Shown one piece after another: positions 9,026-31,932 of a stretch of DNA of 64,000 nt (positions are counted from its first letter, which is position 1; every line of letters starts with the position of its first letter). The translations under genes were made by a program, and so were the position numbers. The stretch comes from an uncultured Chloroflexia bacterium (lineage in GTDB: Bacteria > Chloroflexota > Limnocylindria > Limnocylindrales > CSP1-4), in assembly GCA_963704935.1 (NCBI GenBank), contig CAVPIF010000001.1, forward strand, positions 1,601,969 to 1,665,968. The letters run 5' to 3'. The notes under the pieces are model-generated. The model was given only the letters and a program-made list of their open reading frames with translations. It searched no databases and was not told the DNA's origin.

Positions 9026-9044
9026 CCCTCTTAACTCAAGAGGG
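9026..9044 (-). terminator. Second small stem-loop just 3' of the livJ stop
   Basis: CCCTCTT-aactc-AAGAGGG, 7-bp stem. Confidence 0.3.
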
Positions 9045-9052
9045 GATACGGC

Positions 9053-10517: not shown

Positions 10518-10545
10518 ATATTAGGCATCGGCGACCCGAATGCAA
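10518..10545 (-). promoter_or_regulatory. Candidate sigma-70-type promoter TTGCAT-16 nt-TAATAT for the liv operon
   Basis: Minus strand reads ccggtaTTGCATtcgggtcgccgatgccTAATATacgg. It would give a leader of about 220 nt before the livJ ATG. Confidence 0.4.
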
Positions 10546-10705
10546 TACCGGTCGGCCGCCCCTTCGTCCTTCGCGCTCGTGCGCGGTCCGTGAACGTCAT
10601 CCGCTCGCGATCGGGACGAGGTCGCTGGCCTCCTGTGCCGGCCATGGGTCGGATGCCCCGGTCGAGGGGCGACGGTCGCCGTCCTGTGAGGTACGAACCT
10701 TCGGC

Positions 10706-11170
10706 GTGGAATACCTGGTCCGAGCCGCCCGTGTCACCGATATCGATCGTCTCGTCGCCCTCGGCGACGCGGACCTTCGTGTGGACCGTGACCCGAGCCC
10801 GCTCGATGCCGCGGACCTGCTCCGACAGCTCGTCTACCTGCCGCAGGCGAGCATCTTCGTCGCCGAGACGGGGCGTCACGTCGTGGGAGGAGCCGTCCTG
10901 GCTCTTCGCCCGTCGGTCCGCTCCGGGGGGTTCGTCGGCACGATCGATCTGCTGGTCGTCGACCCCGACCATGACGTCGACCGAGTGACCGCCGCCCTCC
11001 TGGAGGAAGTCATCCGCTCGGCAAGCAACAAGGGCTGTACGGTCGTCGAGGCGGTCCCGCCGAGCGACCCGATCGCCACCGAGCGCTGGACACGACTGGG
11101 GTTCGCCCCGGCCGGTCCGCGCATCCAACGACCCGTGGCCGCGGCCGGCATCGCCGGGCGCCGCCCATGA
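10706..11170 (+). CDS. GNAT-like N-acetyltransferase (154 aa)
   Basis: GTG at 10706 within track ORF 10403..11170. Sequence FVAETGRHVVGGAVLAL...IDLLVVDPDHDVDRVTAALLEEV...RLGF. Confidence 0.5.
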   Translation: MEYLVRAARVTDIDRLVALGDADLRVDRDPSPLDAADLLRQLVYLPQASIFVAETGRHVVGGAVLALRPSVRSGGFVGTIDLLVVDPDHDVDRVTAALLEEVIRSASNKGCTVVEAVPPSDPIATERWTRLGFAPAGPRIQRPVAAAGIAGRRP

Positions 11171-11237
11171 CCATCGCCCCGCCGAGCAGCGTCGTCGCGC
11201 CGGCCAGGGCGCCAACCATGACCCTCTAGGAGTCAAT

Positions 11238-13143: not shown

Positions 13144-13151
13144 CCCGGACC

Positions 13152-14384
13152 ATGGACGGCGCCCGGACCCGGGGGCATGTGGCCGCGCTCGGCGCGGTCG
13201 CGGCGATGATCCGGGGGCGGGCGCCCCATGCCGTGCTGCTCGTCGGCCCGGCGGGGGTCGGCAAGACCACCCTGGCGCTGGATCTGGCCGCCGGGCTCCT
13301 GTGCACCGCGGAGGACCGGGATCGCCGCCCGTGCGGCGCCTGTCGCGCCTGCCGCCTCGTCGCATCAGGCGGTCACCCGGACCTCCACCGGCTCGGCCCG
13401 GAGGGGCCCGGACGCCAGGTCGTCATCGGGGGCCCGGGCGCGCGCCTGCGCGGCGTCCGGGATCTCGTCGGCGACCTGGCGCTGATGCCCGTCGAAGGAG
13501 GTGCCCGGATCGCCATCGTCGAATCCGCCCAACGGATGAACGACGACGCCCAGGCGGCCCTGCTCAAGACGCTGGAAGAGCCGCCGGCCGGCGTCACGAT
13601 CGTGCTGTGCGCCGACGCGGAGGAACCCCTGCTCCCCACCGTCCGGTCGCGCTGCGCGCGCCTGCGGCTCGGCCCGGTCGGGACGCGGGACATCGAAACA
13701 CTGCTCTCCGACCGTGGTGTCGCCGATCCGCCGACCGCCGCTCGACTGGCCCGTGTCGCGGCCGGACGCCCCGGGGTCGCGCTGGCCTGGGCGGCCGACC
13801 CGGATGCCCTCCGACGGCGGGACGAGCTGAGCCGGATCCTGCTGGACCTGACGTCGGCGCGGCCGTCCCACCGCCTGGAAGCCGTCCGCTCCGCCGCGGT
13901 CGGTGCCGTCGCACTCGCCGCCCTGTCGAGGTCTGGCGACGGGGGCACCCGCACCGCCGTCGGATCGGCCAGCCCCGCAGTCCGCGGTCGCCGGCGCAGA
14001 GCGGACGACGACGCCCCCGGATCGGCAAGCGACCAGCGCCAGGATCCGGACGTCGGTGACGCGTCGGAGGGTGACCTCGAGGTGGGCGCCCCCGGCAAGG
14101 CTTCGGCCGCGGATCGTCGGCGCGCCGCGGAGGTCCTCGTCAGCGTCTGGACCGATGTGGCCCGCGACCTGTTGCTCGGCCGGCATGGGCTCGCCACCTC
14201 ACTCCGGGACCCGCGGCTCCTCGAGGAGACCATGGCCGTCGCGGAGGGGGCGGACGAGGCGGCCCTGCGGGAGTTCCTCGACCGACTCGGTCGCGCCGCC
14301 GTCCGGCTCGCTGGCAACGCCGCGCCGGAGCTGATCCTCGACGATCTCGCGCTGGCCTGGCCGCACCGACGGTCCGCCGCATGA
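13152..14384 (+). CDS. holB: DNA polymerase III delta-prime subunit
   Basis: HAVLLVGPAGVGKTTLA, zinc module CGACRAC, LLKTLEEPP, SRC motif TVRSRC. Confidence 0.9.
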   Translation: MDGARTRGHVAALGAVAAMIRGRAPHAVLLVGPAGVGKTTLALDLAAGLLCTAEDRDRRPCGACRACRLVASGGHPDLHRLGPEGPGRQVVIGGPGARLRGVRDLVGDLALMPVEGGARIAIVESAQRMNDDAQAALLKTLEEPPAGVTIVLCADAEEPLLPTVRSRCARLRLGPVGTRDIETLLSDRGVADPPTAARLARVAAGRPGVALAWAADPDALRRRDELSRILLDLTSARPSHRLEAVRSAAVGAVALAALSRSGDGGTRTAVGSASPAVRGRRRRADDDAPGSASDQRQDPDVGDASEGDLEVGAPGKASAADRRRAAEVLVSVWTDVARDLLLGRHGLATSLRDPRLLEETMAVAEGADEAALREFLDRLGRAAVRLAGNAAPELILDDLALAWPHRRSAA

Positions 14385-14680
14385 GCGCCGCCGCCCGGCT
14401 GGACGCCGTCATCCGCGGCCGGGTGCAGGGGGTCGGGTTTCGGTTCTTCGTCCTGCGTCGTGCCGCAGCTCTCGGGCTGGACGGCTGGGTCGCCAATGCC
14501 CCGGACGGGTCGGTCCGGGTTCGCGCCCAAGGTGCCCGGACCGCCCTCGACGAGCTGGTGGCCGCCCTCCGGGAGGGGCCCTCGGGCGCCGCCGTCGACG
14601 CCGTGGACGTCGCCTGGGGTGAGGTCCTGGGTGACCTTCCCGCGTTCGGCGTCCGAAGCGGCGCCCATCCCGGTGACTGA
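14381..14680 (+). CDS. acyP: Acylphosphatase
   Basis: VIRGRVQGVGFRFFV...GWVANAPDGSVRV. ATGA overlap with holB. Confidence 0.85.
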   Translation: MSAAARLDAVIRGRVQGVGFRFFVLRRAAALGLDGWVANAPDGSVRVRAQGARTALDELVAALREGPSGAAVDAVDVAWGEVLGDLPAFGVRSGAHPGD

Positions 14681-16863: not shown

Positions 16864-17814
16864 TCAGTCGGGGACGATCTCCGTCCCGGCCTCCCCGGCC
16901 AGGGCGGCCTCCATGCCGTCCGGAGAGGTGATGATCGCCCTTCCGCCAGCCTGTTCGAGGTACCAGATGCACGCCTCGATCTTGGGCTGCATGCTGCCCG
17001 GCGCGAAGTGGGTGCCCTCGGCGAGGTAGCGCTTCGCCTCGCCGATCGTGAGGCGGTCCACCCAGCGCTGCTCCGGTCGACCCCAATCGAGTGCGACGCG
17101 CGGCACCGACGTGCTGATCATGAACACGTCGGCGCGCAACTCGATGGCCAGGAGCGCGGAGGCGAAGTCCTTGTCGATCACGGCGGCCACGCCGTGAAGA
17201 TCGCCGTGCTCGTCCGCCACGACCGGGATGCCACCGCCACCGACGGTGATGACGACGAAATCCGCACGCAGCAGCGAACGGACTGCGTCGAGCTCCACGA
17301 TCCGTCGCGGTCTTGGCGACGCCACGACCCGTCGCCAGCCACGGCCGGCATCCTCGCGCACGGCCCAGCCGTCATGGTCCCGGCGGCGGATGGCCGTGGG
17401 CTCGTCCATGAACGATCCGATCGGCTTGGACGCCTGCTCGAACGCTGGATCGTCCGCGGCGACCTCGACCTGCGTGACCAGCGTGACGGCTTGCCGGTCG
17501 ATGCCGAGGCGCCGGAAGTCGTGGCCGAGGTTCTGCTGGAGCTCGTAGCCGATCGCGCCCTGTGAATCGGCGTCGCAGACGTCGAGCGGCACCTCGTGGA
17601 GCTCATGGGCCGCGAGCTCCGACCGGCGGAGGATGAAGCCGACCTGTGGCCCGTTCCCGTGGCCGATCGCGACGTGCCAGCCGTCCTTGATGATGCGGGC
17701 GATGTGCGTGCTCGTCTCGCCCAGCGCCTGGTACTGGTCCGGGACGGACATGTGCTGGGCGTCCTTGATCAGCGAGTTGCCACCGATGGCGACGACGAGG
17801 ACCTGGTTGGACAT
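16864..17814 (-). CDS. arcC: Carbamate kinase
   Basis: LVVAIGGNSL...HVAIGHGNGPQVG...ITVGGGGIPV. AGGAGG RBS. Confidence 0.9.
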   Translation of the reverse strand: MSNQVLVVAIGGNSLIKDAQHMSVPDQYQALGETSTHIARIIKDGWHVAIGHGNGPQVGFILRRSELAAHELHEVPLDVCDADSQGAIGYELQQNLGHDFRRLGIDRQAVTLVTQVEVAADDPAFEQASKPIGSFMDEPTAIRRRDHDGWAVREDAGRGWRRVVASPRPRRIVELDAVRSLLRADFVVITVGGGGIPVVADEHGDLHGVAAVIDKDFASALLAIELRADVFMISTSVPRVALDWGRPEQRWVDRLTIGEAKRYLAEGTHFAPGSMQPKIEACIWYLEQAGGRAIITSPDGMEAALAGEAGTEIVPD

Positions 17815-17868
17815 CGATCTGCCTCCTGGGCGTGGGCGACGCCTCTCCGCGCTCTGCCGACGCGCCGG

Positions 17869-18846
17869 TCAGCGCATCGTCAGGGCCATGACCGCCTTCT
17901 GGGCGTGGAGCCGGTTCTCGGCCTGGTCGTACACGACCGACCGCGGACCGTCGATGACCTCGTCCGCCACTTCGACGCCGCGCTCGGCCGGGAGCGGGTG
18001 CATGTAGATCGCGTCGTCGGCGGCCATCGCCATCCGGCGCCCATCGGTGATCCAGTCCGTGTAGCGCGCGGCGATCGCGGCGCCGTCCGCGTCATCCTTC
18101 GCGTGGAGCAGGGCGCCCCAGCTCTTGGCGTAGACGACGTCGGAGCCGCGGAAACCGGCCTCGAAGTCGTCCAGTCGTTCCAGGCTCCCATGCGACACGC
18201 GCGTGTTCTCCTGTGCCTGGGCGAGGATGTCGGGCATCAGCTCGAACTCCGGTGGGTGGACCAGGCGGACGTCCATGCCGTAGCGGGTCGCGGCCAGCAG
18301 GAGGTCCTGCGGGACGCTGATCGGCTTCTGGTAGGACGCGGCGTACGCCCAGCTGATGGTGATCGTCTTCCCCCGCAGGTCGCCCTTGCGCTCGCGCATC
18401 GTCATCAGGTCCGCCAGGATCTGGTGGGGGTGATAGACGTCGCATTGCATGTTGAGGACCGGGACGCGGCTGGCCGCTGCGACGTCGCGGATGTACTGGT
18501 TGCCGATCCCCCAATCCACGTTGCGGATGGCGATCCCGTCGTTGTAGCGGCCCAGGATCTCGCCGATCTCGGTCGGCGTGTCGCCGTGCGCGATCTGGGT
18601 GGTCCGGCTCTCGATGAACTGGGCGTGACCGCCCAGCTGCGCCATCCCGGCCTCGAATGAGGCCCTGGTCCTCGTGCTGGAGAAGAAGAACAGCATCGCC
18701 AGGACCTTGTCGCGAAGGAGCGGGTGGGCGACGCCCATGGCCCGGTCACGCTTGAGCTGGAAGGCGACGTCGAGGATCGTGTCGATCTCGTCCGTCGTGA
18801 ACTCCTGGAGGCTGATCAGGTCGCGGCCGCGGAGGTCGGTCTGCAT
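17869..18846 (-). CDS. YgeW-like carbamoyltransferase (ATCase/OTCase superfamily, 325 aa)
   Basis: Track ORF 17869..19281 trimmed to the ATG at 18846 (MQTDLRGRDLISL). Motifs STRTR, TQIAHGDT, NMQCDVYHPHQ, ISWAYAASYQKPISVPQD, DVVYAKSWG and YMHPLP. These stretches match my recollection of E. coli YgeW. Confidence 0.8.
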   Translation of the reverse strand: MQTDLRGRDLISLQEFTTDEIDTILDVAFQLKRDRAMGVAHPLLRDKVLAMLFFFSSTRTRASFEAGMAQLGGHAQFIESRTTQIAHGDTPTEIGEILGRYNDGIAIRNVDWGIGNQYIRDVAAASRVPVLNMQCDVYHPHQILADLMTMRERKGDLRGKTITISWAYAASYQKPISVPQDLLLAATRYGMDVRLVHPPEFELMPDILAQAQENTRVSHGSLERLDDFEAGFRGSDVVYAKSWGALLHAKDDADGAAIAARYTDWITDGRRMAMAADDAIYMHPLPAERGVEVADEVIDGPRSVVYDQAENRLHAQKAVMALTMR

Positions 18847-18856
18847 CGCCGCGCCC

Positions 18857-19810
18857 CTACTCCGTCGCGCCCAGCACGAGGCTGAGCAGGGCCATGCGCA
18901 GGACGACGCCGTTGAACGCCTCCACCCAGTAGCGCTGGTGGCGCGTCTCGTCGACGTCGGGCAGGAGTTCGTCCATGCGCGGCAGCGAGTGGAGGATGAT
19001 CGAGCTTGACTTGGCCTTCGCGGCGAGCAGCTCGCGAGTGACCCGATAGGCCTCCGGCGTGGTCGGGAGTTCCCCGCTCCGTTCCTCGCGGCCCTTCGTG
19101 TAGTCGGCCTGGACCACTGGCTCCATGTAGATGACGTCCGCCTGGGCGATCCCCTCCTCGACCGACGCGATCTCGCGGTAGCGCACGTTGACGGCGTCCA
19201 GTTCCGCCTTGAACTCGGGCAGCAGCGACATGTCCGGCGGTCCCACGACGAGGGCCTCGGCATCGAACTGCGACAGCGCATAGAGGATCGAGTGCATCGT
19301 CCGCATCCGCATGTCGCCCACCAGGAGGTAGGTCAGCCCGTCCAGCGTCCCGAGTTCCGTCCGTACGGTGTACAGGTCGGTCAGGACCTGGGTCGGGTGC
19401 TCGCCCCAGCCGTCACCGCAGTTGATGACCGGCACGGACGCCCAGCGCGCGGCCTCGGCCGGTGCGCCCTGCTGGAAATGCCGGATGGCGATGACGTCGC
19501 CGTAGTACTCCAGCATGTGGAAGGTGTCCTTGATCGACTCCTGGTAGAAGTCACCGGCGCGGGTCATCTTCGCGTCGGAGAAGCCGAGGACATGGCCGCC
19601 CAGCCGATGCATCGCGGCCTCCGTGGAGAGGCGGGTCCGGGTACTGGGCTGATAGAAGGCCGTCAGCAGGGTCTTGTTCTTGAGCAGGTCGCCGTTGCGC
19701 CGGTCGCGGGCGTATGGCTTGAGGTCGTCGCAGACCTCGAAGACGCGCTGGAACTCGTCGCGGCTGAAGTCCTTGAGCGACAGGATGTCGCGGCCGAGGA
19801 AGCTTCTCAT
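18857..19810 (-). CDS. Divergent aspartate-carbamoyltransferase (PyrB)-like paralog, substrate unknown (317 aa)
   Basis: STRTR, IRHFQQG, GDGWGEHPTQ, VGDMRMRTMHS, ILHSLPRMDEL and NGVVLRMALLSLVLG are colinear with PyrB. The RVQKER region instead reads EPVVQAD. Confidence 0.8.
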   Translation of the reverse strand: MRSFLGRDILSLKDFSRDEFQRVFEVCDDLKPYARDRRNGDLLKNKTLLTAFYQPSTRTRLSTEAAMHRLGGHVLGFSDAKMTRAGDFYQESIKDTFHMLEYYGDVIAIRHFQQGAPAEAARWASVPVINCGDGWGEHPTQVLTDLYTVRTELGTLDGLTYLLVGDMRMRTMHSILYALSQFDAEALVVGPPDMSLLPEFKAELDAVNVRYREIASVEEGIAQADVIYMEPVVQADYTKGREERSGELPTTPEAYRVTRELLAAKAKSSSIILHSLPRMDELLPDVDETRHQRYWVEAFNGVVLRMALLSLVLGATE

Positions 19811-21224
19811 GGTGCACTCCGATCGGGTAGGGGGTTGCCGTGGCGGACGCCGGTGAACAGGATCGCGACGCGCTCGTTCCCGGCGATCTCGCGCAGCCGC
19901 TGGAGGTGGAGCAGCCCGGCGAGCCCGGCGGTCCCGGTCGCATCGGCGGGGATCCCGGTGGCCTGGTCGGCGAGCAGGTTGGCAGCCAGGAGCTCGGACT
20001 CCTCGACGACGACGGGCCGCCCGCCCGTGCCGAGCATGGCCTCGACCACGGCCAGCCAGTCGTAGGTCTCGTCATCCAGGATCCCGTGGGCGACGCTGCG
20101 CGGCTCCGTCTCCCACGGCCACATGTAGTCCGACCGATGGCGGGCGGCGTGATCGAGCACGGCACGGACCTCGGATCGGGTCACGTCCACGGGGCCGAGG
20201 CTCGGGACCCCGCGACGGTCGAGGTCGGCGACGATCCGATCGTACGCCCGACGGAGCGGCCAGGCACCGGTCGTCTGGACGGTATCCATGCGCGGGACGG
20301 AACGGATGACACCCAGCGTCCGGGCCTCGGCCAGACCCTGCGCGCACGCGGAGGCCAACGCCCCACCACCGACCTGGACGATCAGCCGCGACACCGCCAG
20401 GTCGCCGCGCGCCATGGCCTCGGCCATCTCATACCCCAGCGTCTCGCCGCCCTCGATCGCCAGGCCGTTCACCGGCCCTTGGCAGGTGAACGGGATCGCC
20501 CCGCCCTCGATCGCGACGCGCAGGCGGCGGACCGTCGGGTCTCCGCGCTCGTCCGCGTCGCGCCGGACGACTTCGATCCGGGCGTGCAGGTGTTCGAGGC
20601 GCTCCAGGATCAGCGGGTCGGCGTCGGTCGGCACGAACACGTCCAGGCGGCGGCCGGCGGCATGGGCGACGACGGCCGCGGCCAGCGCCGCGTTCCCACA
20701 GCTGGCGATGGCCAGGGGCCGGCCCTCCAGCGTCGGGTCCAGCGTTTCGGCGACGAGGAGCTCCAGCAGGATGCCCATCAGGTGGCGGGCCTTGTGCGAC
20801 CCGGCGACCCCGCCTGTCTCGTCCTTCACCCAGACGCCATCATCCGCGGTGAACCCGAGCGTGGCGCTCAGCGTGTCCGCGCGCAGGAACGGGGTGATCC
20901 GGAAACCGCGTCCGTCCACTGCCGCCACCGCCCGGTCGAGGCGGTGCACGTGGTCGACATACCGATCGTCCGACCAGCCCGCCGCGCGTGCGACGTGCCA
21001 GGCCCGGAACATCTGGCGATACCGGACGAACGGGTTCGGGTCGTCATCGGCCACGAGCACGATGCGCGAGGGGTCGAGGCGGCGGGTCACCAGGTGGTCG
21101 AGGTCGTCGCCGTCGACGGCTCGCGGGCAGCGGGCGGGAAAGGCGTCGTCGGCCGTCGCCTCCCAGCCACAGCCCGCGCAGTCGACGGCGACCGCGGTGA
21201 CAGGCATGGGCGGCAGCGTGGGGC

Positions 21225-21228
<4 letters not shown>
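19807..21228 (-). CDS. Fold-type II PLP-dependent enzyme, threonine-synthase/TrpB-like (about 473 aa)
   Basis: Lysine motif [15 protein letters not shown] and glycine loop [14 protein letters not shown] at 21228 overlaps the upstream stop (GTGA); alternative ATG at 21207. Confidence 0.7.
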
Positions 21229-22748
<1,520 letters not shown>

Positions 22749-22822
22749 GACCTGCTCTCCCGTCCGGACCGCGACCAGCCACGTGGGCGCCGATCGTGGT
22801 CGATCCGCTCGAAGGTCCGAAC

Positions 22823-22855
22823 GGGCCCCAAAGGACGGGCCCAACAGCAGGGCCC
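22823..22855. promoter_or_regulatory. Three GGGCCC palindromes at 13-14 bp spacing in the divergent promoter region
   Basis: GGGCCC at 22823, 22837 and 22850, inside the 187-bp gap between the two operons. Confidence 0.3.
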
Positions 22856-22935
22856 GCACATGAGAGGCGTTTCCTATGCTGTCGAAGGGGCCGACCCTCG
22901 GGATAGGGCCGGATGGCCGCCATGGAGCAGGCGAT

Positions 22936-25611
22936 ATGGCTCAGTTGACGTTCACGCTGAACGGCCGCGCGGTTTCCGCGGCGGTCGGATCGGGGACCAG
23001 CCTGCTCGAGCTGCTCCGGGATGAGGCGGGCCTGCTGGGCCCGAAGGACGGGTGCGCACCGGAGGGCTCCTGCGGCGCCTGCACGGTCATCGTGGACGAC
23101 CGTGCCGTCGTCACGTGTGCGCAGCCGGCCGAGCGCGTGGCCGGTCGGGCGGTGACGACCCAGGCCGGGCTCTCCTCCGAGGTCCGGGCCCAGTGGGCGG
23201 ATGCATTCGCGCTGACCGGGGCCTCGCAGTGCGGGTTCTGCTCGCCCGGCATCGTGATGAAGGCCGAGGCACTGCTCCGCCGGGACCCCGCCCCCGCTCG
23301 TGATGCCGTGATGCGGGCGCTGGCCGGGAACCTGTGCCGCTGCACCGGATACCACCGGATCGCCGACGCGATCGAGCTGGTGGCGGCCGCAAGACGCGGC
23401 GAGACCCCCATCCCCGCGCCGGAGCGTCGCCCCGATATCGGCTCACGGGCCATCCGCTACGAGTCCCGGGAGCTGGCGCTCGGGACCAAGCCGTTCGTGG
23501 CCGACCTGCGCGTGCCGGACATGCTCCACGGGGCGTTGCGCTTCGCGGACCACCCGCGGGCGGTCGTCCGGCAGATCGACACGGCCCGCGCGGCTGCGCA
23601 TCCGGGTGTCGTCGCCGTCGTCACCGCTGCTGACGTGCCGGGGGAGCGGGTGCAAGGGCTGATCCGCGCGGACTGGCCGGTGTTCGTCGCGGTCGGCGAG
23701 ACGACGCGCTACGTCGGCGACGTGCTGGCCGCAGTCGCCGCCACCACCCGCCGTGCCGCCCGCGAGGCCACCGCCCTCATCGATGTGGACTACGAGGTCC
23801 TCCCGCCGGTCACGGACCCGTTCGAGGCGCTGGCCGCGGACGCTCCGCCGATCCATGAGGGGGGCAACCTGTTGTCGCGGTCGGAGATCCGCCACGGCGA
23901 CGTGGACGTCGCGCTCTCCGGTGCCGCGCACGTGGTGACCGACACATTCCGAACCGGGCGGATCGAGCACGCGTTCCTGGAGCCCGAGGCGTGCCTCGCG
24001 GTCCCGGCCTCGGGCGAGGCAACGGCGATCCCGGACGTGACCGCCGCCGCGCCCGAGCCGAGCCTGCACCTCTTCTCGCCGGGCCAGGGGGCCTGGGACG
24101 ATCGCCGGCAGGTCGCCTCACTCCTGGGTCTGGCGGCATCGGACGTGCGGGTCACGCAGGTTTCGACCGGCGGCGGGTTCGGCGGCAAGGAGGACCTCAG
24201 CGTCCAGGGCCAGACCGCACTCCTGGCCTGGCGGACCGGCCGTCCGGTCCTGCTCGCCCTCTCCCGCAAGGACAGCCTGCGTCTCCATCCCAAGCGCCAC
24301 CCGTTCTGGATGGACTACACGGTCGGCTGCGACGCGGACGGTCGCCTGGCTGCCGTCCGGGCGAGGATCGTCGGGGACAACGGCGCCTACGCGAGCGTCG
24401 GGATGAAGGTCCTTGAGCGAGCCGCCGCGCACGCCTGCGGCCCGTACCGGGTCGGCGCGGTGGATGTCGAGGCACGGGCTGTCTACACCAACAACCCGCC
24501 GTCGGGCGCGATGCGCGGGTTCGGCGTCAACCAGACCGCCTTCGCCGTCGAGGGGATGCTGGACCGACTCGCAGAGATGGTCGGGATCGACGGCTGGGAG
24601 ATGCGCTGGCGCAATGCCCTGGAGACCGGTGATCGCTTCGCCACCGGGCAACGGCTGGGCCCGGGCGTCGGGCTCAAGGCGACCCTGCTCGCGGTTCGTG
24701 ATGCCTATCGGGCGGCCCCGCGAGCGGGGATCGCGTGTGGCGTGAAGAATTCCGGCATCGGCAATGGCCTGACCGAGCACGGCCGCGCCATCCTCCGGCC
24801 CGAGGCCGACGGCAGCATCACGCTCTACCACTCGTGGACCGAGATGGGCCAGGGTTGCCACACGGTCTTCGCCCAGCTCGCCGCGTCGGAACTTGGCGTC
24901 CCGCTGGACACCATCCGCGTCGTCGTCGATACCGAACGCGAGCTCGATACCGGACAGACCACGGCCTCGCGGGCCACGATGCTCGGCGGACGGGCGGTGC
25001 TGGAGGCCGCCGCAGCCCTTCGAGTGGAGCTGGCTGGCCGGCCACCGCGGGACCTGGCGGGTCGCGAGTTCCCCGGTGAGATCACCATCGACTGGACGAC
25101 ACCGCTGGACACGGATGCCGCCGAGCCGATCACCCACTTCGCCTTCGGCTGGGCGACCCAGGTCGTGATCCTCGATGACGAGGGCCGGATCGCCAGGGTC
25201 GTGGCGGCCCACGATGTCGGCCGCGTCCTCAATCGGACCCTGGTCGAAGGTCAGGTGGAGGGCGGCGTCCACATGGGTCTCGGCCAGGCGCTCAGCGAGG
25301 AGTTCATCGTTCGCGACGGGGTGCCGGTCACGGACACGCTCAAGTCACTGGGGATCATCCCGGCCGCCGGGATGCCCCCGGTCGAGACGATCCTCGTGGA
25401 GGAGCCGCAGCCCGAAGGTCCGCTCGGGGCGAAGGGGATCGGGGAAGCGTGCCTGGTTCCGACGGCGGCGGCCGTCGCGGGAGCGCTCTACCGGTTCGAC
25501 GGCATCCGGCGGACTCGCCTGCCGATGCGTGATTCGGCGGCCGCCCGCGCGGCGGTCCCCAGGTTGGCCCATCTCGCCGAAGCGCCGGCCCTGGCTCGGC
25601 GGGCGCCATGA
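22936..25611 (+). CDS. XdhD/Mop-type molybdenum hydroxylase with fused N-terminal 2x[2Fe-2S] domains, no FAD domain (891 aa)
   Basis: ATG at 22936 with GGAG 8 nt upstream. Motifs [20 protein letters not shown] and CRCTGYH. Moco domain with the conserved GAKGIGE near the C-terminus. Confidence 0.85.
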
Positions 25612-26987
25612 CCACCGTGCTGTCGGGTGGGACGGTCGTCGCCGGGCTGCACCCGGCCGAGATCGTCGTCGGTGACATCGTCATCGAGGGCGACCGGGTC
25701 GCGGCCGTCGGCTCCGGTCCGTTCGGGCCGTCCCGACCGCACGCCGGATCGATGGACGTCGCCGTCGTCGACGTCTCGGGTTGCCTCGTGATCCCGGGCA
25801 ACGTCTGCGCGCACACCCACGCCTACTCCGCCCTGGCCCGCGGGATGCCCTATCGACTCGCCCCACCGCGGGACTTCGTGGAGATCCTCCGCCGCGTCTG
25901 GTGGCGCCTGGACCGGGCACTCGACGAAGCCACGATCCGGGCGTCTGCCCGGGTGGCGGCCGCCGAGGCGCTGCTCGCCGGGACCACCACGCTCGTCGAC
26001 CATCATGCGTCGCCGCGTGCCATCGATGGCTCGCTCGACACCGTCGCGCAGGCGTTCTCGGAGCTCGGCGTGCGCTCGATCCTGGCCTACGAGACGAGCG
26101 ATCGGGACGGGCCGCTGGCGGCGGCCGGCGGACTGGCAGAGAACCGGCGGTTCCTGGCCTGGGTCGCGGCCGAGCATCCGCGGCTGGTCCGGGGCATGGT
26201 CGGAGCGCATGCCTCGTTCACGCTGTCCGACGCCACGCTTGACGGCTGCGTGGACCTTGCGCGGGCGAGCGGCTGCGGCCTCCACATCCACGTTGCCGAG
26301 GACGCCGCCGACGAGCGGGATTCGGCGGCGAGCCACGGGGTGCGCGTCCTGGATCGACTGGAGCGGGCCGGCGCCCTGGACCCGGCCCCGTTGCTCGCCC
26401 ACGGCGTCCACCTGGACCAGGCGGAGGCGGCCCTGTTCCGGGCGTCGGGCGCGACCCTGGCGCATAACCCGCGCTCCAACATGAACAACGCTGTCGGGCG
26501 GGCGCCCCTCGGCCTGCTGGGCCCGCGCGTCGCCCTGGGCACGGACGGGATCGGGGCGGACATGTTCGAAGAGAGCCGGGTGGGCCACCTGCGCCTGGTC
26601 GAGGAGGGTGGCAGCCACACGGACGGCGCCGCCTGGCCCCTCGCGCGGCTGACCGCCGGAGCGCGTCTCGTCGGCGACGCCTTCGACGAGCCCACGTTCG
26701 GGCGGATCGTCGCCGGCGCGCCGGCGGACCTCGTCGTCCTCGACCAGCCGCTGCCGACGCCGATCACGCCGGACACCCTTGCTGGTCACTGGGTCTTCGG
26801 ATTGTCCGCCCGGGCGGTCCGCGATGTGATCGTGGCCGGCCGGGTCGTGGTCCGCGACCGGCGCCTGACGAGCGTGGACCAGGACGTCCTGGCCGCCGAA
26901 GCCCGGGTCGAGGCGACCCGACTGTGGGAGCGCATGGACGCGATCGGCGAACACCCGTTCGCGTCCGGGGAGGTGATGGTGGGATGA
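25608..26987 (+). CDS. ssnA: SsnA-like amidohydrolase (chlorohydrolase/cyclic amidase superfamily)
   Basis: VIPGNVCAHTHAYSALARGM...TTTLVDHHASP...HIHVAEDAAD...LAHGVHL...ALGTDG. ATGA overlaps on both sides. Confidence 0.75.
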   Translation: MTTVLSGGTVVAGLHPAEIVVGDIVIEGDRVAAVGSGPFGPSRPHAGSMDVAVVDVSGCLVIPGNVCAHTHAYSALARGMPYRLAPPRDFVEILRRVWWRLDRALDEATIRASARVAAAEALLAGTTTLVDHHASPRAIDGSLDTVAQAFSELGVRSILAYETSDRDGPLAAAGGLAENRRFLAWVAAEHPRLVRGMVGAHASFTLSDATLDGCVDLARASGCGLHIHVAEDAADERDSAASHGVRVLDRLERAGALDPAPLLAHGVHLDQAEAALFRASGATLAHNPRSNMNNAVGRAPLGLLGPRVALGTDGIGADMFEESRVGHLRLVEEGGSHTDGAAWPLARLTAGARLVGDAFDEPTFGRIVAGAPADLVVLDQPLPTPITPDTLAGHWVFGLSARAVRDVIVAGRVVVRDRRLTSVDQDVLAAEARVEATRLWERMDAIGEHPFASGEVMVG

Positions 26988-28129
26988 CCTCGTCGACCGG
27001 ACCCGTGGCAGGCACGACGGCCGCCGCCGACCTCGCGCCCACCCCCGTCGACCTCTCCGTCGAGGTCTGCGGCATCCGCTTCCCCAACCCGGTCTGGACC
27101 GCAGCCGGTCCGCCGGTCCGCGACGGCGCCGCACTGCTGGCGTGTGCTGCCGGAGGCGCAGGTGGGCTCGTCACCAAGACGATCTCCCGGACCGCCGCCG
27201 AGCCCACGACGCCGAACATGGCCGAGATCTCGCACGGCTTCCTGAACGCCGAGCTGTGGTCGGAACTCCCGCCGGAGCGCTGGATCGAGCGCGAGTACGC
27301 GATCACCCGCGAGGCCGGATTGCCGGTCATCGTGAGCATGGGCTACAGCGCCGAGGACATCGCTGACCTCGCGCCCCGGGTGCGACCGTTCGCCGACGCC
27401 CTGGAGCTGTCCACGCACTACATCGGTGAGGACGCCGAGCCGATGGTCGCCGCGATCCGTGCCGCCAAGGCCGCGGTGGACGTCCCGGTGTTCGTGAAGC
27501 TGAGCCCCCTTGGACGCGAGATGCGGAGGGCCGCTGAGCAGGCCCAGGCGGCCGGCGCGGACGCGATCGTGGCGATCAACTCGTTCGGGCCGTGTCTCGC
27601 CATCGACATCGAGGCCGCGATGCCGCATATCGGCGGCGACGACGGCTACGGGTGGTTGTCCGGCCCGGCCCTCAAGCCGATCGCGATCCGCTGCGTCCAC
27701 GACGTCGCATCCGTCGTCGACATCCCGGTGATCGGCTGTGGTGGGATCTCGCGCGGGACGGACGTCATCGAGCACCTGATGGCCGGGGCGGTCGCGACCC
27801 AGGTCTGCACGGCCGCGATCCTGCGCGGCCCGGGCGTCCTCGGCAAGATCGCGACGGAGACGGCGACCTGGCTCGGCAAGCACGGCTATGCGAACCCCGC
27901 GGCGGTCAGCGGCCTCGCCCTGCGCCGGACGTCGACCGACCCGATCCACGCACCGATCCTGGACCTGGACCTGTGCAACGGCTGTGGCCTGTGCGAGCTG
28001 TCGTGCGACCACGACGCGGTCAACGTGGTGGACGGCAAGGCGATCCTCGACGAGGAGATGTGCACCCGCTGCGGTCTGTGCATCTCCCGCTGCCGGCCGG
28101 GCGCCCTGCTCTGGGAATCGCCGGCCTGA
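26984..28129 (+). CDS. Dihydroorotate/dihydropyrimidine dehydrogenase (PreA)-like flavoprotein with C-terminal 2x[4Fe-4S] ferredoxin domain
   Basis: ATG at 26984 overlaps the ssnA stop. Motifs GIRFPNPVWTAAGP, VFVKLSP, IGCGGISRG, CNGCGLCELSC and CTRCGLCISRC. Confidence 0.8.
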   Translation: MTSSTGPVAGTTAAADLAPTPVDLSVEVCGIRFPNPVWTAAGPPVRDGAALLACAAGGAGGLVTKTISRTAAEPTTPNMAEISHGFLNAELWSELPPERWIEREYAITREAGLPVIVSMGYSAEDIADLAPRVRPFADALELSTHYIGEDAEPMVAAIRAAKAAVDVPVFVKLSPLGREMRRAAEQAQAAGADAIVAINSFGPCLAIDIEAAMPHIGGDDGYGWLSGPALKPIAIRCVHDVASVVDIPVIGCGGISRGTDVIEHLMAGAVATQVCTAAILRGPGVLGKIATETATWLGKHGYANPAAVSGLALRRTSTDPIHAPILDLDLCNGCGLCELSCDHDAVNVVDGKAILDEEMCTRCGLCISRCRPGALLWESPA

Positions 28130-28157
28130 CCCGCCTCCGGTACGATGCCGGACGGCC

Positions 28158-28703
28158 ATGACCGATCCTTCCCGGCCGCTGCCCCGCGACCTCCTGTTGA
28201 CCGGCGAACGCGTCCGCCTGCGCGCGGTCCGGCCGGACGACCACGACCGACTTCGGGAGATCCTGCGCGAGCCCTCGGTGGCCCGCTGGTGGGGTCCGCC
28301 GCGCCCCGGGGTCGATGTCGTCGACGACTGGCTCGACGCCGACGAGGACACGCTCGTGCTGGCGATCGAGGTCGATGGCCAGGTCGTCGGCAGCCTCCAG
28401 TTCGCCGAGGAGGCCGACCCTGATTACCGGCACGCCGGCATCGACCTGTTCCTCGCGACGGCGTCGCAGGGCCGCGGCCTCGGCACGGACGCGATCCGGA
28501 CCGTCGCCCGCCACCTGTTCGACGTCCGCGGCCATCATCGGCTGACGATCGACCCGTCCGCGGAAAACGAGCGGGCGATCGCCGCATACCGGCGCGTCGG
28601 CTTCCGGCCCGTCGGAGTCATGCGCTCGTACGAGCGCGGCTCCGACGGCAGCTTCCACGACGGCCTGCTCATGGACCTGCTCCGCGACGAGTTCACCGGG
28701 TGA
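28158..28703 (+). CDS. GNAT family N-acetyltransferase (RimJ/AAC(6')-like, 181 aa)
   Basis: VRLRAVRPDD...WW...IDLFLATASQGRGLGTDAIRTVARHLF...AAYRRVGF. Confidence 0.75.
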   Translation: MTDPSRPLPRDLLLTGERVRLRAVRPDDHDRLREILREPSVARWWGPPRPGVDVVDDWLDADEDTLVLAIEVDGQVVGSLQFAEEADPDYRHAGIDLFLATASQGRGLGTDAIRTVARHLFDVRGHHRLTIDPSAENERAIAAYRRVGFRPVGVMRSYERGSDGSFHDGLLMDLLRDEFTG

Positions 28704-29887
28704 GCAGCCGGGGATCGGCGGACGTCGCCATCGTCGGCGGCGGAGTCATCGGGAGCGCGATCGCGTATTTCCTGCGCTCGGACCCGGGCTTCGACGGGCG
28801 GGTCGTCGTGATCGAACGGGACCCGAGCTATCGGCGCGCCTCGTCGGCGCTGTCGGCGAGCTCTATCCGGCAGCAGTTCTCCACGCCGGAGAACATCCGG
28901 ATGTCGCAGTTCGGGTTCGACTTCCTCCGCCGCACGAGCGAGCACCTCTCCGTGGACGGCGACGTGCCGGACATCGGGTTGACGGAGCGCGGGTACCTCT
29001 TCCTGGCGACCCCGCGGCACGAGGCCACCCTGCGGGACGTCCACACGATCCAGCGTGCGGAGGGTGCCGAGGTGGTCCTCCTGTCGCCCGCCGAGCTCGC
29101 CGACCGCTACCCCTGGATGTCCATCGACGGGATCGCCCTGGGCTCGCTCGGGCTGCGACGCGAGGGCTGGTTCGATGGCGATGCGCTCACCCGGGCCTTC
29201 GTCCGGGCGGCGAAGGCGCGCGGCGTCGAGTACCTGCCGGCGGAAGTCGTCGGGATCGAGGCGGATGGGTCGCGGATCAGCGGCGTGCGGCTGTCGGACG
29301 GCGCCACGCTCCGCTGCGGAACGCTCGTCAACGCCGCCGGCCCGTGGGCTCGCTCGGTCGCCGCGATGGCCGGTGTGCCGCTCCCGGTCGAGGCGCGCCG
29401 GCGTACCGTGTTCGTCTTCGGCGGTCGCGAGCCGATCCCCGATTGCCCGCTCGTCATCGACGCCTCAGGGGCGTGGTTTCGGCCCGAGGGCGGTTCGTTC
29501 ATCGGCGCGATCTCCCCGCCGGAGGCGGACGACCTCTCCGACCTCCCGCTGGATCCGGATCGCGGCCTCTGGGAGCGTGCCCTCTGGCCGGCCCTCGCCG
29601 CGCGCGTCCCCGCGTTCGACGCCCTGCGGACGACCAGCGCGTGGGCCGGCTACTACGAGGTCAACACCCACGACCACAACGCCATCCTGGGGCGGCACCC
29701 GGAGATCGCGAACCTGCTGTTCGCGAACGGGTTCTCCGGTCACGGGATCCAGCAGGCGCCCGCGGTCGGGCGCGCCATCGCGGAACTGATCCTCCGGGGC
29801 CGGTACGTCAGCCTGGACCTGTCGGTGTTCGGCTACGAGCGGATCGCCGCCGGGCGCCGGGTGGAGGAGCGCAACGTCATCGGCTGA
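28700..29887 (+). CDS. FAD-dependent oxidoreductase, DAO family (sarcosine/D-amino-acid oxidase-like)
   Basis: Dinucleotide fold VAIVGGGVIGSAIAYFL and FANGFSGHGIQQAPAVG. Confidence 0.8.
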   Translation: MSSRGSADVAIVGGGVIGSAIAYFLRSDPGFDGRVVVIERDPSYRRASSALSASSIRQQFSTPENIRMSQFGFDFLRRTSEHLSVDGDVPDIGLTERGYLFLATPRHEATLRDVHTIQRAEGAEVVLLSPAELADRYPWMSIDGIALGSLGLRREGWFDGDALTRAFVRAAKARGVEYLPAEVVGIEADGSRISGVRLSDGATLRCGTLVNAAGPWARSVAAMAGVPLPVEARRRTVFVFGGREPIPDCPLVIDASGAWFRPEGGSFIGAISPPEADDLSDLPLDPDRGLWERALWPALAARVPAFDALRTTSAWAGYYEVNTHDHNAILGRHPEIANLLFANGFSGHGIQQAPAVGRAIAELILRGRYVSLDLSVFGYERIAAGRRVEERNVIG

Positions 29888-29922
29888 CCGTTGACGCCGG
29901 GGTCGCGGACGACTTCACCCGC

Positions 29923-31932
29923 TCAGATCGCGCTGGCCACCCGCAGCCCCTCGAGGATGGCCTCCTCTACGGTCCGTGGTGCCAGGCAGTCCCCGATGCC
30001 GTGGACCTCGCCGTCGAAGGTGCCGAGCGCGTCGAGCGCGGTGAGCAGCCCGTCTACCGGGTCGTGGCCCTGGGCGAGTACGAGGCCGGCAACGTCCTCC
30101 ACGATCGCGGCCTCCCCGGTGAGGACGTGCTGGAAGAAGACGGCGGAGCCGTCGTACCCGAAGAGTCGAACCAGGGGGAGTACCTGGACCCCGGCCCGGG
30201 TCACCGACGCGATCATCGCGTCGCGGACGTACTGCTGGATCCGCTGCCCCGGCATGTAGCCGTCCACGCCCAGCGTCACTCGCCGGCCGCGCTCGGCGAG
30301 GAGCTCCGCGAGGCCAAGGCCCACCCAGTCGCAGCGCCAATCGGCAACGACGAGCCGGCCTTCCGGGAGCTCGGCGCCGCGCAGGACCTGCCAGGCGTCC
30401 AGGACGATCGGCGATCCACTCAGCTCCAGCGGCGGTCGGCGCGGCAGCGCGCCCGTCGCCACGACGACCACGTCCGGTCGCTCGCGCCGGATCAGGTCCA
30501 CGTCCACGGTGGTCCCGGTGATCACCCGAACGCCGGCCCGCTCCGCTTCGCCGGTCAGGTTCGTGACCACGCCCCCGAACTCGGCCCGCCCGGGCAGGCG
30601 TTCCGCGAGCAGCACCTGGCCGCCGACCCGTCGAGCGGCTTCGTAGAGGGTCACCCGATGGCCGCGCTCGGCGGCGACGGTCGCCGCCTTGAGACCGCCG
30701 GGACCGCCACCCACGACCAGGACGTCGCGGACACGCGTTGCGCGGACCGGCGGGCCGAACTCCAGTTCGCGGCCACTCTCCGGGTACTGGATGCAGGAGA
30801 TCGGATAGCCGGCGTGGAAATGACCGATGCACGCCTGGTTGCAGCCGATGCAGGCGCGGATCTCGTCCGCCCGGTCGTCGGCTGCCTTCATCGGCAGCAG
30901 CGGGTCGCAGATGAGTGCCCGCGTCATCGCACAGGCGTCCGCCTGCGCCAGCTCCAGGATCCGCTCCGCCTCCTGCGGCTGGTTGATCCGGCCCGCGACG
31001 ATGACCGGGACGCGCACGACGGCCCTGGCCCGTGCGGCGAGTGGCGCCGTGTAGGCGTTCGGGAGGGTCATCGGCGGCACGATGTGGTCGGAGCCTGCGA
31101 GCGTCGCCGATGTGCCGGCCACGACGCTGACGTAGTCGATCAGCTCGTCTGCATCAAGGGTCGCGAGCGCCGGCAGGACGTCGTCCGGAGTGAGGCCCTC
31201 CGGGGTGATCTCGTCGATCGAGATGCGCAGACCAACGACCGGCTCGCGGCCGATCTCGGCCCGGATCGCGGCGATCGTCTCGCGCAGGAAGCGCAGCCGG
31301 TTCTCCGCGCTGCCGCCGTAGCGGTCCGTGCGCAGGTTCACCCGCGGGTTGAGGAACTGGGCGGGAAGGTAGCCGTGGCTGGCAACGACCTCGACCCCGT
31401 CCAGGCCCGCGTCGCGCAACCGCCGCGCCGCCGAGGCGTAGCCGGCCCGGATCTCCTCGATGAGCGGGATCGGCATGGCGCGCGGCATGACCCCGAACCG
31501 TTCGTTCGGGACGGCTGACGGGGCGAGGGCGACCGGCAGCGTCCCGTCCATCGACTCCATCAGTTCGCGGCCGTCGTGGAAGACCTGGCCGACGATCGCG
31601 CTGCCATGCCCGTGGACCGCTTCGGCCAGCCGGCGGTACCCGGGGATGCAGGCGTCGTCGGTCGCCATCAGGACGTGCGAGGTATACCGCGCGCTCTCGT
31701 GGACGCCCGCCACCTGGACGACGATGAGCCCGACGCCGCCCGCGGCGCGGGCCGCCTGATACGCGATCAGCCGCTCCGTCACGAAGCCGTCGACGGCCAT
31801 GACCGTGTCGTGCCCCGACGACACGATCCGATTGCGCAGCGTGACGCTCCCGATCCGCAGCGGCGAGAACAGCCGCGGGAACGGCCGCGCGGGCGGCGCG
31901 CCCGGGGAGGGCGCGGGTAGCGGATCGGACAT
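29923..31932 (-). CDS. NADH:flavin oxidoreductase of the 2,4-dienoyl-CoA reductase (OYE TIM barrel + 4Fe-4S + FAD/NAD(P)) type (669 aa)
   Basis: Track ORF 29923..32232 trimmed to the ATG at 31932 (MSDPLPAP). Motifs LRNRIVSSGH, CIGCNQACIGH and VVGGGPGGLKAA. Confidence 0.85.
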   Translation of the reverse strand: MSDPLPAPSPGAPPARPFPRLFSPLRIGSVTLRNRIVSSGHDTVMAVDGFVTERLIAYQAARAAGGVGLIVVQVAGVHESARYTSHVLMATDDACIPGYRRLAEAVHGHGSAIVGQVFHDGRELMESMDGTLPVALAPSAVPNERFGVMPRAMPIPLIEEIRAGYASAARRLRDAGLDGVEVVASHGYLPAQFLNPRVNLRTDRYGGSAENRLRFLRETIAAIRAEIGREPVVGLRISIDEITPEGLTPDDVLPALATLDADELIDYVSVVAGTSATLAGSDHIVPPMTLPNAYTAPLAARARAVVRVPVIVAGRINQPQEAERILELAQADACAMTRALICDPLLPMKAADDRADEIRACIGCNQACIGHFHAGYPISCIQYPESGRELEFGPPVRATRVRDVLVVGGGPGGLKAATVAAERGHRVTLYEAARRVGGQVLLAERLPGRAEFGGVVTNLTGEAERAGVRVITGTTVDVDLIRRERPDVVVVATGALPRRPPLELSGSPIVLDAWQVLRGAELPEGRLVVADWRCDWVGLGLAELLAERGRRVTLGVDGYMPGQRIQQYVRDAMIASVTRAGVQVLPLVRLFGYDGSAVFFQHVLTGEAAIVEDVAGLVLAQGHDPVDGLLTALDALGTFDGEVHGIGDCLAPRTVEEAILEGLRVASAI

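Follow-up and report, generated by a model that had tools for sequence, protein, structure and literature searches.

An eight-gene cluster of a Chloroflexota genome that probably encodes a variant reductive uric-acid (2,8-dioxopurine) degradation pathway

A divergent gene island was analysed in a 64,000-nucleotide stretch of contig CAVPIF010000001.1 (positions 1,601,969 to 1,665,968 of the forward strand; assembly GCA_963704935.1, from an uncultured Chloroflexia bacterium), the whole of which is referred to here as the window, and the island genes at 16864-28129 probably code for a variant form of reductive uric-acid (2,8-dioxopurine) degradation. The window has a G+C content of ~71%; genes were called with guidance from G+C at third codon positions (GC3), and the resulting proteins were scanned against Pfam and NCBIfam. 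All eleven genes of an island proposed earlier from the sequence alone (the original prediction) were recovered at the coordinates given in this text, with a strong GC3 coding signal. On the minus strand lie two fold-type II pyridoxal-phosphate (PLP) enzymes identified by the Pfam PALP domain, namely PLP1 (21225-22748; 507 aa), which resembles O-acetylserine sulfhydrylase (OASS) and cystathionine beta-synthase (CBS) and has N- and C-terminal extensions, and PLP2 (19807-21228; 473 aa), which is ThrC-like with a Cys-rich N-terminal segment; the starts of both match database gene calls (P0121 and P0001). They share the strand with an aspartate carbamoyltransferase (ATCase)-derived carbamoyltransferase, CTA (18857-19810; TIGR00670), a short YgeW-type carbamoyltransferase of 325 aa, CTB (17869-18846; Pfam OTCace_N and OTCace), and a carbamate kinase, CK (16864-17814; NCBIfam), the equivalent of YqeA/ArcC. 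On the plus strand are a fused 2x[2Fe-2S] and molybdopterin hydroxylase of the xanthine dehydrogenase family, XDH (22936-25611; TIGR03311 and Pfam), an SsnA-like amidohydrolase (25608-26987; best models NF005540 and TIGR03314) and a UacX-type reductase with a DHO_dh domain and a C-terminal 2x[4Fe-4S] segment (26984-28129; PF01180 and Fer4 families).

The two gene sets diverge from a spacer at 22749-22935, which is 187 bp long as originally described, and the 4-nt overlaps reported for most junctions were found at five of the eight same-strand junctions: GTGA between PLP1 and PLP2 and between an acetyltransferase (GNAT) and a D-amino acid oxidase (DAO)-type gene further 3′, and ATGA at PLP2/CTA, XDH/SsnA and SsnA/UacX. 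The XDH, SsnA-like and UacX-type genes are translationally coupled, and the remaining three junctions are gaps of 10, 54 and 28 nt. No regulator or transporter lies within the island, in agreement with the original prediction. As a single unit, the island held only in part. The conserved portion is the eight genes at 16864-28129, and it stops at 28129 because GNAT and DAO follow only in the closest relative and a third gene, for an old yellow enzyme (OYE)/FadH-type flavoprotein, is found beside the cluster in none.

Conservation was assessed in species-representative genomes sampled from three starting points, SsnA, PLP1 and CTA. The SsnA- and PLP1-centred samples each comprised 80 loci, and the CTA-centred sample comprised the best 80 of at least 579 confirmed matches, all at least 78% identical. 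The nearest relatives of the island are metagenome-assembled genomes (MAGs) of Chloroflexota/Limnocylindria, and not Actinomycetota. The closest (L001) shows 73-95% identity across the island and also shares the flanking holB and thioesterase genes. The host is therefore probably a Limnocylindria-like member of the Chloroflexota. The same order, with CK, CTB, CTA, PLP2 and PLP1 on one strand diverging from XDH, SsnA and UacX on the other, was found in at least 10 Chloroflexota loci, whereas in Gaiellales/Thermoleophilia the genes lie on a single strand in the order PLP1, PLP2, CTA, XDH, SsnA, F420-dependent luciferase-like monooxygenase (LLM)-type reductase, CTB and CK. Other Actinomycetota carry a canonical arrangement, with the F420-LLM reductase, a true YgeY (474 bits vs 321), XDH, SsnA and one CTB; a true diaminopropionate (DAP) ammonia-lyase and a D-hydantoinase are encoded close by.

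The oxygen-independent, reductive uric-acid (2,8-dioxopurine) pathway was established by two studies in 2025 (Li et al. PMC12507026; Liu et al. bioRxiv 10.1101/2025.04.24.650524). Urate is converted to 2,8-dioxopurine by XdhD-YgfM in E. coli or by XdhAC/DOPDH in C. sporogenes, and 2,8-dioxopurine is dearomatised by YgfK, or by the PydA-like UacX in C. difficile. SsnA then opens the ring to give ureidomethyl-hydantoin and 5-ureido-dihydrouracil, and HyuA yields 2,3-diureidopropionate. YgeW takes one ureido group as carbamoyl phosphate, from which YqeA makes ATP (the hydrolase UacY being an alternative), the second ureido group is removed by YgeY, and diaminopropionate is converted to pyruvate by YgeX (all PMC12507026; bioRxiv 10.1101/2025.04.24.650524). 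The molybdenum (Mo) enzyme of the clostridial pathway is selenium-dependent. SsnA (IPR017700/TIGR03314) was used as the marker gene and XDH-SsnA-reductase adjacency as the mark of the pathway, and SsnA clusters were reported in Chloroflexota and Actinomycetota together with an F420-dependent reductase variant (Li et al. PMC12507026).

The proteins of the E. coli ygeW-xdhD region were used as tblastn queries against the whole 64-kb window. Matches were obtained only to CTB (YgeW, 34%), CK (YqeA, 50%), the SsnA-like protein (SsnA, 40%) and the Mo enzyme (XdhD 26%, XdhA 31%); there was no match to YgeX, YgeY, HyuA, YgfK, YgfM, YqeB, YqeC or MocA in the window, which bears out the earlier remark that the usual E. 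coli partners are not visible. Synteny and the published pathway likewise support the original view of one ATP-yielding system for N-heterocycle degradation, related to the ygeW/ssnA/xdhD region, in which other enzymes replace those partners, and the chemistry then proposed (ring reduction, hydrolytic opening, ureido phosphorolysis, CK and disposal of the C3 skeleton by PLP enzymes) corresponds to the reductive urate pathway of 2025.

The Mo enzyme passes the TIGR03311 equivalog of the selenium-dependent xanthine dehydrogenase family (947 bits vs a cut-off of 830), whereas it reaches only 226 bits against TIGR03313, the family of E. coli XdhD; the description as an XdhD/Mop-type hydroxylase thus stands for the fused FeS-Mo architecture and falls for the XdhD family. 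Its Pfam domains are Fer2, Fer2_2, Ald_Xan_dh_C and MoCoBD_1/2, with no flavin adenine dinucleotide (FAD) domain. Among solved structures, both Mo halves are nearest to the selenium-dependent nicotinate dehydrogenase and the whole chain is nearest to the Mop aldehyde oxidoreductase. The former agrees with the placement of DOPDH next to selenium-dependent nicotinate dehydrogenases by Liu et al. (bioRxiv 10.1101/2025.04.24.650524), who also reported the active-site differences F1009V and A1078T/S (bovine numbering) for DOPDH. Glu606 of E. coli XdhD sits in an insertion confined to XdhD and is uninformative for the window enzyme. XDH always lies upstream of SsnA in the related loci, and the protein is predicted to be a urate/2,8-dioxopurine oxidoreductase of the DOPDH/XdhAC type. 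The ring had originally been envisaged as hydroxylated and then reduced; ring reduction fits the published route, but there the Mo enzyme acts reductively, by 6-dehydroxylation.

The SsnA-like protein aligns over its full length with E. coli SsnA at 40% identity and scores 428 bits against NF005540 (cut-off 444) and 409 against TIGR03314 (cut-off 455.5), both models spanning the whole protein, with the next family at 159; it would open the ring of reduced 2,8-dioxopurine. The UacX-type reductase combines a PydA/PreA-like flavin mononucleotide (FMN) domain (PF01180) with two [4Fe-4S] motifs, which is the architecture described for C. difficile UacX, and its place is held in relatives by the F420-dependent LLM enzyme or by YgfK. 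From this architecture and position, it is a candidate for the enzyme that dearomatises 2,8-dioxopurine. The homology of UacX to PydA/PreA could also be read as a sign of a reductive pyrimidine-type pathway, in which the flavoprotein would reduce uracil, thymine or a 5-substituted uracil, the amidohydrolase would open the dihydropyrimidine and a carbamoyltransferase would cleave the beta-ureido acid. The dihydroorotate dehydrogenase (DHOD) and PreA models are indeed the best for this protein, although below cut-off, and the published urate pathway has itself been described as analogous to the Pyd pathway. Such a pathway would, however, need no Mo hydroxylase and would release one ureido group only, whereas here a Mo enzyme is translationally coupled to SsnA and the reductase and two carbamoyltransferases are present, and the relatives exchange UacX for the F420-LLM enzyme or YgfK yet keep XDH and SsnA. 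We consider this explanation very unlikely.

On the opposite strand, CK scores 371 bits against NCBIfam NF009007 (cut-off 266), is 50% identical to E. coli YqeA and is predicted to make ATP from carbamoyl phosphate. CTB has YgeW as its best E. coli match (34% identity) and carries the motifs NxQCDxxHPxQ, WAYxxSYxKPxSVPQ and YxKSW that are otherwise confined to YgeW, and it has neither the DxxxSMG nor the HCLP motif of ornithine transcarbamylase (OTCase). It lacks the insertions and C-terminal tail of YgeW and falls below every NCBIfam cut-off (YgeW models NF005538, 185 vs 453, and TIGR03316, 169 vs 500), so that its earlier assignment as YgeW-like is backed in part by shared signature motifs and not by the family models. 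The window CTB belongs to a subtype with HPHQ, YAKSW and HPLPA where YgeW has HPTQ, YPKSW and HCLPA, and the Gaiellales CTB subtype is identical to YgeW at these three motif positions. CTB would phosphorolyse one ureido group of 2,3-diureidopropionate.

CTA exceeds the ATCase equivalog cut-off (TIGR00670, 256 bits vs 237) and has the fold and length of an ATCase catalytic chain, with 235 bits to the P. abyssi ATCase (1ML4). Structures of ATCase show the beta-carboxylate of aspartate bound to Arg229 and Lys84 and its alpha-carboxylate bound to Arg167. Alignment to E. coli PyrB and 1ML4 showed that CTA keeps STRTR, R105-H106, HPTQ, R167-T168 and HxLPR (the carbamoyl-phosphate site and Arg167), whereas T228-R229-V-Q231 is replaced by MEPV and the K83-K84 loop by RAGDFYQE, with the loss of the aspartate-binding Arg229, Gln231 and Lys84, Pro and Val standing for the first two, and the gain of a Glu at position 228. 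MEPV is present in 80/80 CTA orthologues and the RAGDFYQE-type loop in 77/80, and in none of the 80 does CTA lie beside pyr genes. The pattern suggests an enzyme that retains the carbamoyl-phosphate and alpha-carboxylate sites and has lost the beta-carboxylate site and, since a Glu is also gained, one fitted to an alpha-N-carbamoyl amino acid with a non-acidic side chain. Candidate substrates are 3-amino-2-ureidopropanoate or diureidopropionate, and CTA may be a phosphorolytic stand-in for the ureidohydrolase YgeY.

Scores of this kind could instead mean that the minus-strand operon belongs to ordinary metabolism, with a PyrB ATCase, an ArgF OTCase, an arcC carbamate kinase and cysteine and threonine synthases that lie next to the XDH operon by chance: CTA does exceed the ATCase cut-off, and the names given to the PLP enzymes by automatic pipelines are cysteine synthase, threonine synthase or threonine dehydratase. 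Set against this are the absence of Arg229, Gln231 and Lys84 from CTA and of the OTCase DxxxSMG and HCLP motifs from CTB, the absence of pyrI, pyrC and arcA neighbours, and the fact that, in at least three phyla and despite several rearrangements, the five genes remain linked to XDH and SsnA, which together make chance adjacency of housekeeping genes extremely improbable. Roles as oxamate or ornithine transcarbamylases were also considered for CTA and CTB and were rejected, as the surroundings contain neither allantoin nor arginine-deiminase genes and the motifs of the substrate site are different.

The PLP1-PLP2 pair was compared with known PLP enzymes by profile and by structure. Neither protein matched the DAP ammonia-lyase models NF006058, TIGR01747 and TIGR03528 at E<=1e-5, whereas scores of 348-507 bits are reached by the true DAP ammonia-lyases of related loci. 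AlphaFold2 models (pLDDT 84-86) were searched against the PDB with Foldseek. The neighbours of the predicted PLP1 structure were generic fold-type II enzymes, OASS and CBS, with a core like that of OASS, and those of the predicted PLP2 structure were threonine synthase, dehydratases and racemases at no more than 22% identity. Lys112 of PLP1 is invariant in 11 sequences from distant phyla. PLP2, which matches threonine synthase weakly in NCBIfam and the PDB, has a lysine aligned with the PLP-binding lysine of that enzyme (GSHKAR). Both families are large, come mostly from soil metagenomes and bear generic names only. In the Joint Genome Institute (JGI) annotation, homologues of PLP1 are named ‘cysteine synthase’ and those of PLP2 ‘threonine synthase’ or ‘threonine dehydratase’. 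PLP2 lies directly downstream of PLP1 in 79 of 113 PLP1 loci, and XDH and SsnA are the commonest other neighbours in the PLP1-centred sample.

PLP1 is also found in otherwise canonical clusters that lack ygeX (L136, L092, L113, L105, L061, L064 and L078), and is predicted to replace YgeX in processing the C3 diamino-acid skeleton. Enzymes of the OASS type handle beta-substituted alanines through an aminoacrylate intermediate, a chemistry that suits diaminopropionate or albizziin. PLP1 may carry out a beta-replacement (e.g. to serine), with PLP2 finishing the conversion to pyruvate, or PLP2 may serve stereochemistry. PLP2 was rejected as a substitute for HyuA, as the two occur together in four loci (L092, L136, L088 and L109) and the chemistry is unsuited. 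In the closest relative, the PLP2 gene appeared as two separate tblastn pieces (L001:4100-5600; 68% and 78%), suggesting that this MAG contains a frameshift or a misassembly. In Xanthobacter sp. VNH20 (L158:7429-17069) and in similar alphaproteobacterial loci, a PLP1 homologue occurs in the absence of PLP2, XDH and SsnA; its neighbours are an F420 biosynthesis gene of the FbiC type, the A and B subunits of a CoA-transferase, an LLM oxidoreductase, an M20 hydrolase and a homologue of DAP ammonia-lyase, and these loci may represent a different catabolic pathway that reuses PLP1.

Linkage of the two operons was borne out by the neighbours of CTA, which were counted within 10 kb at the 59 CTA-centred loci of at least 15 kb. 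XDH or SsnA was found at 55 of the 59, PLP1 at 53, PLP2 at 50, CTB or YgeW at 49 and carbamate kinase at 40, followed by conventional xdhB/C (35), the F420-LLM reductase (32), 8-oxoguanine deaminase (15), HyuA (11), adenine deaminase (9), YgfK (7), UacX (4), YgeY (2) and DAP ammonia-lyase (0). When the SsnA- and PLP1-centred samples were pooled (157 non-duplicate loci, 107 SsnA loci among them), SsnA was present at 33/33 CTA loci. Among the SsnA loci, whose counts are not independent events owing to similarity-based sampling and shared phylogeny, 33 had CTA only, 26 had YgeY only and none had both, and 63 had PLP1 only, 6 had DAP ammonia-lyase only and none had both. This complementarity is the pattern that non-orthologous replacement would produce, and the two substitutions (CTA for YgeY and the PLP pair for YgeX) recur in genomes of Chloroflexota, Actinomycetota and Dormibacterota. 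Mixed arrangements were also seen. In a Rubrivivax locus (L136), XDH, SsnA, YgeW, YgeY, YqeA, YgfK and HyuA are accompanied by PLP1-PLP2 at the position of ygeX (L092, L105 and L113 are alike), and in L031 YgeY stands where its relatives have CTA.

The original prediction held that the substrate could not be read from the sequence. It can now be named with reasonable confidence, from the match to the published pathway, as urate metabolised via 2,8-dioxopurine, because an XDH-SsnA-reductase module together with a YgeW-type carbamoyltransferase and CK are the hallmarks of that pathway; urate is thus the probable substrate. The same enzyme logic could serve another compound, such as xanthine, products derived from 8-oxoguanine or a nicotinate- or pyrimidine-like ring, with ureido acids that are not diureidopropionate derivatives. 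The specificity of the Mo enzyme, whose nearest solved structures are nicotinate dehydrogenase and the Mop aldehyde oxidoreductase, is unreadable from sequence, SsnA is slightly under its family cut-offs, PLP1 also occurs in contexts without XDH, and the changed CTA, PLP1 and PLP2 and the missing HyuA would suit different intermediates. However, the cluster shows the XDH-SsnA-reductase adjacency that was published as marking the urate pathway, and the neighbours in related loci are purine-specific, comprising conventional xdhABC, deaminases for 8-oxoguanine and for adenine, and a uacT-like permease. In addition, L136 and L092 combine canonical YgeW, YgeY, YgfK and HyuA with PLP1-PLP2, and L031 combines YgeY with CTB-PLP2-PLP1, and such mixtures speak for identical intermediates. 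A different substrate accordingly appears unlikely, though less so than the pyrimidine-type scheme.

For the variant urate pathway, a sequence of steps can be proposed from homology, active-site residues and gene neighbourhoods, from which we infer all enzyme functions. The FAD-less FeS-Mo enzyme would convert urate to 2,8-dioxopurine (step 1), the UacX-type FMN/[4Fe-4S] reductase would dearomatise it (step 2), and the SsnA-like amidohydrolase would open the ring to give ureidomethyl-hydantoin or 5-ureido-dihydrouracil (step 3). A hydantoinase step, not encoded in the window, would lead to 2,3-diureidopropionate (step 4). Both ureido groups would then be removed by phosphorolysis, as opposed to one phosphorolysis and one hydrolysis, with CTB in the role of YgeW and CTA in the place of YgeY, most likely acting on the alpha-N-carbamoyl group (step 5). 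CK would use the carbamoyl phosphate to make ATP, up to 2 ATP per urate compared with 1 in E. coli (step 6), and the OASS-like PLP1 and ThrC-like PLP2, replacing YgeX, would convert the C3 skeleton to pyruvate and ammonia (step 7).

Several observations weigh against this pathway. The SsnA-like protein and CTB score below the curated cut-offs of their families; there is no HyuA-type hydantoinase in the 64-kb window or beside the UacX-type Chloroflexota clusters, and HyuA is near only 11 of the 59 long CTA-centred loci; and SelD, YqeB and YqeC are absent from the window, though the published Mo enzyme needs selenium. The structure searches gave generic fold-type II neighbours for PLP1 and PLP2, from which no function could be assigned. 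PLP1 occurs elsewhere without XDH and SsnA, including five such loci with a DAP ammonia-lyase (e.g. Xanthobacter L158), CTA and YgeY occur together in 2 of the 80 CTA-centred loci (L214 and L236), and the contingency counts share the dependence described above. The missing hydantoinase may have its gene elsewhere, or both rings may be opened by SsnA enzymes of this clade. Because PLP1 is found outside XDH/SsnA loci, and also alongside DAP ammonia-lyase, it is not simply the equivalent of YgeX, and its occurrence without XDH and SsnA leaves room for a wider substrate range. Homologues of YqeB and YqeC adjoin some related clusters (L025, L029, L061, L071, L076 and L078).

In two Streptosporangiaceae-type MAGs (L025:1300-7200 and L029:1500-7300), a YqeB homologue (47-48%) and a second enzyme of the XdhD-YgfM type lie on the flanks of a CTA-type cluster, and in L234 a CTA-type cluster is flanked by a uacT-like permease (40%); these neighbours connect the variant with the selenium-cofactor trait and with the uptake of urate. 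A fuller proposal, which we advance tentatively and with less assurance than the assignment of the cluster to urate degradation, is that CTA phosphorolyses the alpha-ureido group otherwise removed by YgeY, giving 2 ATP per urate, that the PLP1-PLP2 module replaces DAP ammonia-lyase, that ferredoxin-type or F420 reductases are used, and that among soil Chloroflexota and Actinomycetota, a RuBisCO-carrying genome included, this higher-yield version is the common form of the so-called anaerobic gut pathway.

Blocks within the divergent spacer are conserved in an alignment of 15 orthologous Chloroflexota spacers. They comprise a box, GGACGGGCCCAACAGCA (22833-22849), a -10-like TAnnnT (22875-22880) and a palindrome, AGGGCC-N4-GGCC (22905-22918), just before the ribosome-binding site of the Mo-enzyme gene (GGAG, 22924-22927). 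An Rfam search found nothing in the window, scans for sigma-70 and terminator consensus sequences gave no match, the palindrome showed no obvious compensatory changes among the aligned spacers, and none of the conserved motifs recurs in the rest of the window. The blocks may be an operator or a leader hairpin.

The three genes outside the conserved core lie 3′ of UacX. The GNAT acetyltransferase (28158-28703, plus strand; Pfam and NCBIfam), whose nearest model is an AAC(6′) of the Streptomyces type, below cut-off, and the DAO-type FAD oxidoreductase (28700-29887, plus strand; Pfam and NCBIfam) start 28 nt after UacX, with translational coupling between the two genes. Among the relatives, only the closest (L001/L083) has the pair after UacX, and a lone distant DAO-like match (33%) lies near SsnA in L076. 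The pair may have been added to the pathway in this lineage, or it may be a passenger. The convergent OYE/FadH-type flavoprotein (29923-31932, minus strand; FMN and Pyr_redox_2 domains, PF00724 and PF07992) has no orthologue beside the cluster in any related locus examined and is probably unrelated to the urate-type system. Unrelated genes flank the island: holB, an acylphosphatase and an acyl-ACP thioesterase lie to its left, and genes for a peptidoglycan-binding protein and a MacB-type ABC system to its right.

Further upstream in the window are a phosphoribosyltransferase gene (1745-2332) and a Liv-type ABC transporter (4577-11278), the latter with a 741-aa protein that has a periplasmic-binding domain only in its C-terminal half; neither has a synteny link to the island. 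The region at 11600-14400 has a G+C content of 0.76 and long overlapping ORFs on both strands, among them a 460-aa ORF (11761-13143) with no Pfam match, and the gene content upstream of holB is uncertain. A Calvin-cycle cluster lies at 57518-63751 on the minus strand and encodes phosphoribulokinase, fructose-bisphosphatase, a CbbX-like AAA ATPase, the small and large subunits of RuBisCO and a LysR regulator. This ‘anaerobic’ urate pathway may be carried by a soil bacterium that fixes CO2.

Elucidation of the reductive urate pathway came only in 2025 and in gut anaerobes only, and the distinct version proposed here recurs in many genomes of soil phyla; the pathway would therefore not be a gut trait only. 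If CTA acts as proposed, energy conservation from urate would double, which bears on the design of uricolytic probiotics, where flux and energy conservation are set against each other (an issue raised by Li et al. PMC12507026). The order of ureido cleavage is disputed, and it is unsettled which of the two groups, 2-ureido or 3-ureido, is attacked by the YgeW type (Percudani commentary, PMC12990295); an ATCase-derived CTA should prefer the alpha-N-carbamoyl group, which bears on this question. As CTA scores above the ATCase equivalog cut-off, pipelines that use TIGR00670 are expected to call it aspartate carbamoyltransferase.

No prior description of this CTA/PLP1-PLP2 variant was found in the searchable literature, and its relation to characterised systems is as follows. 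With the E. coli cluster (xdhD-ygfM, ygfK, ssnA, hyuA, ygeW, yqeA, ygeY and ygeX), it shares an SsnA-type amidohydrolase (40%), a YgeW-type carbamoyltransferase (34%), a carbamate kinase (50%), an XDH-family Mo enzyme beside SsnA, a fold-type II PLP end step and the same logic of reducing and opening the rings, cleaving the ureido groups and making ATP. It differs in that YgfK, YgfM, HyuA, YgeY, YgeX, YqeB, YqeC and MocA are missing from the 64 kb, that the Mo enzyme is of the FAD-less TIGR03311 type (26% to XdhD) and the reductase of the UacX type, and that an ATCase-derived CTA stands for YgeY and two unrelated PLP enzymes stand for YgeX. By the published descriptions, the clostridial version (C. 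sporogenes XdhAC/DOPDH; C. difficile XdhD, UacX and UacY) has in common with the window a fused FeS-Mo enzyme without an FAD subunit and the UacX architecture (PF01180 and Fe-S), and in both the electrons probably come from a donor other than NAD(P)H. The clostridial clusters, however, keep HyuA, YgeY and YgeX, and C. difficile uses the hydrolase UacY on one ureido group and has no carbamate kinase, whereas the window has two carbamoyltransferases and a kinase. PyrB ATCase (TIGR00670) and CTA have the same fold, length, carbamoyl-phosphate motifs and Arg167, but Arg229, Gln231 and the Lys83/84 loop are replaced in CTA. The arginine deiminase pathway, with its catabolic OTCase and carbamate kinase, also passes from ureido phosphorolysis through carbamoyl phosphate to ATP; its substrate is citrulline, whereas the substrates here would be purine-derived ureido acids, with two transferases feeding one kinase.

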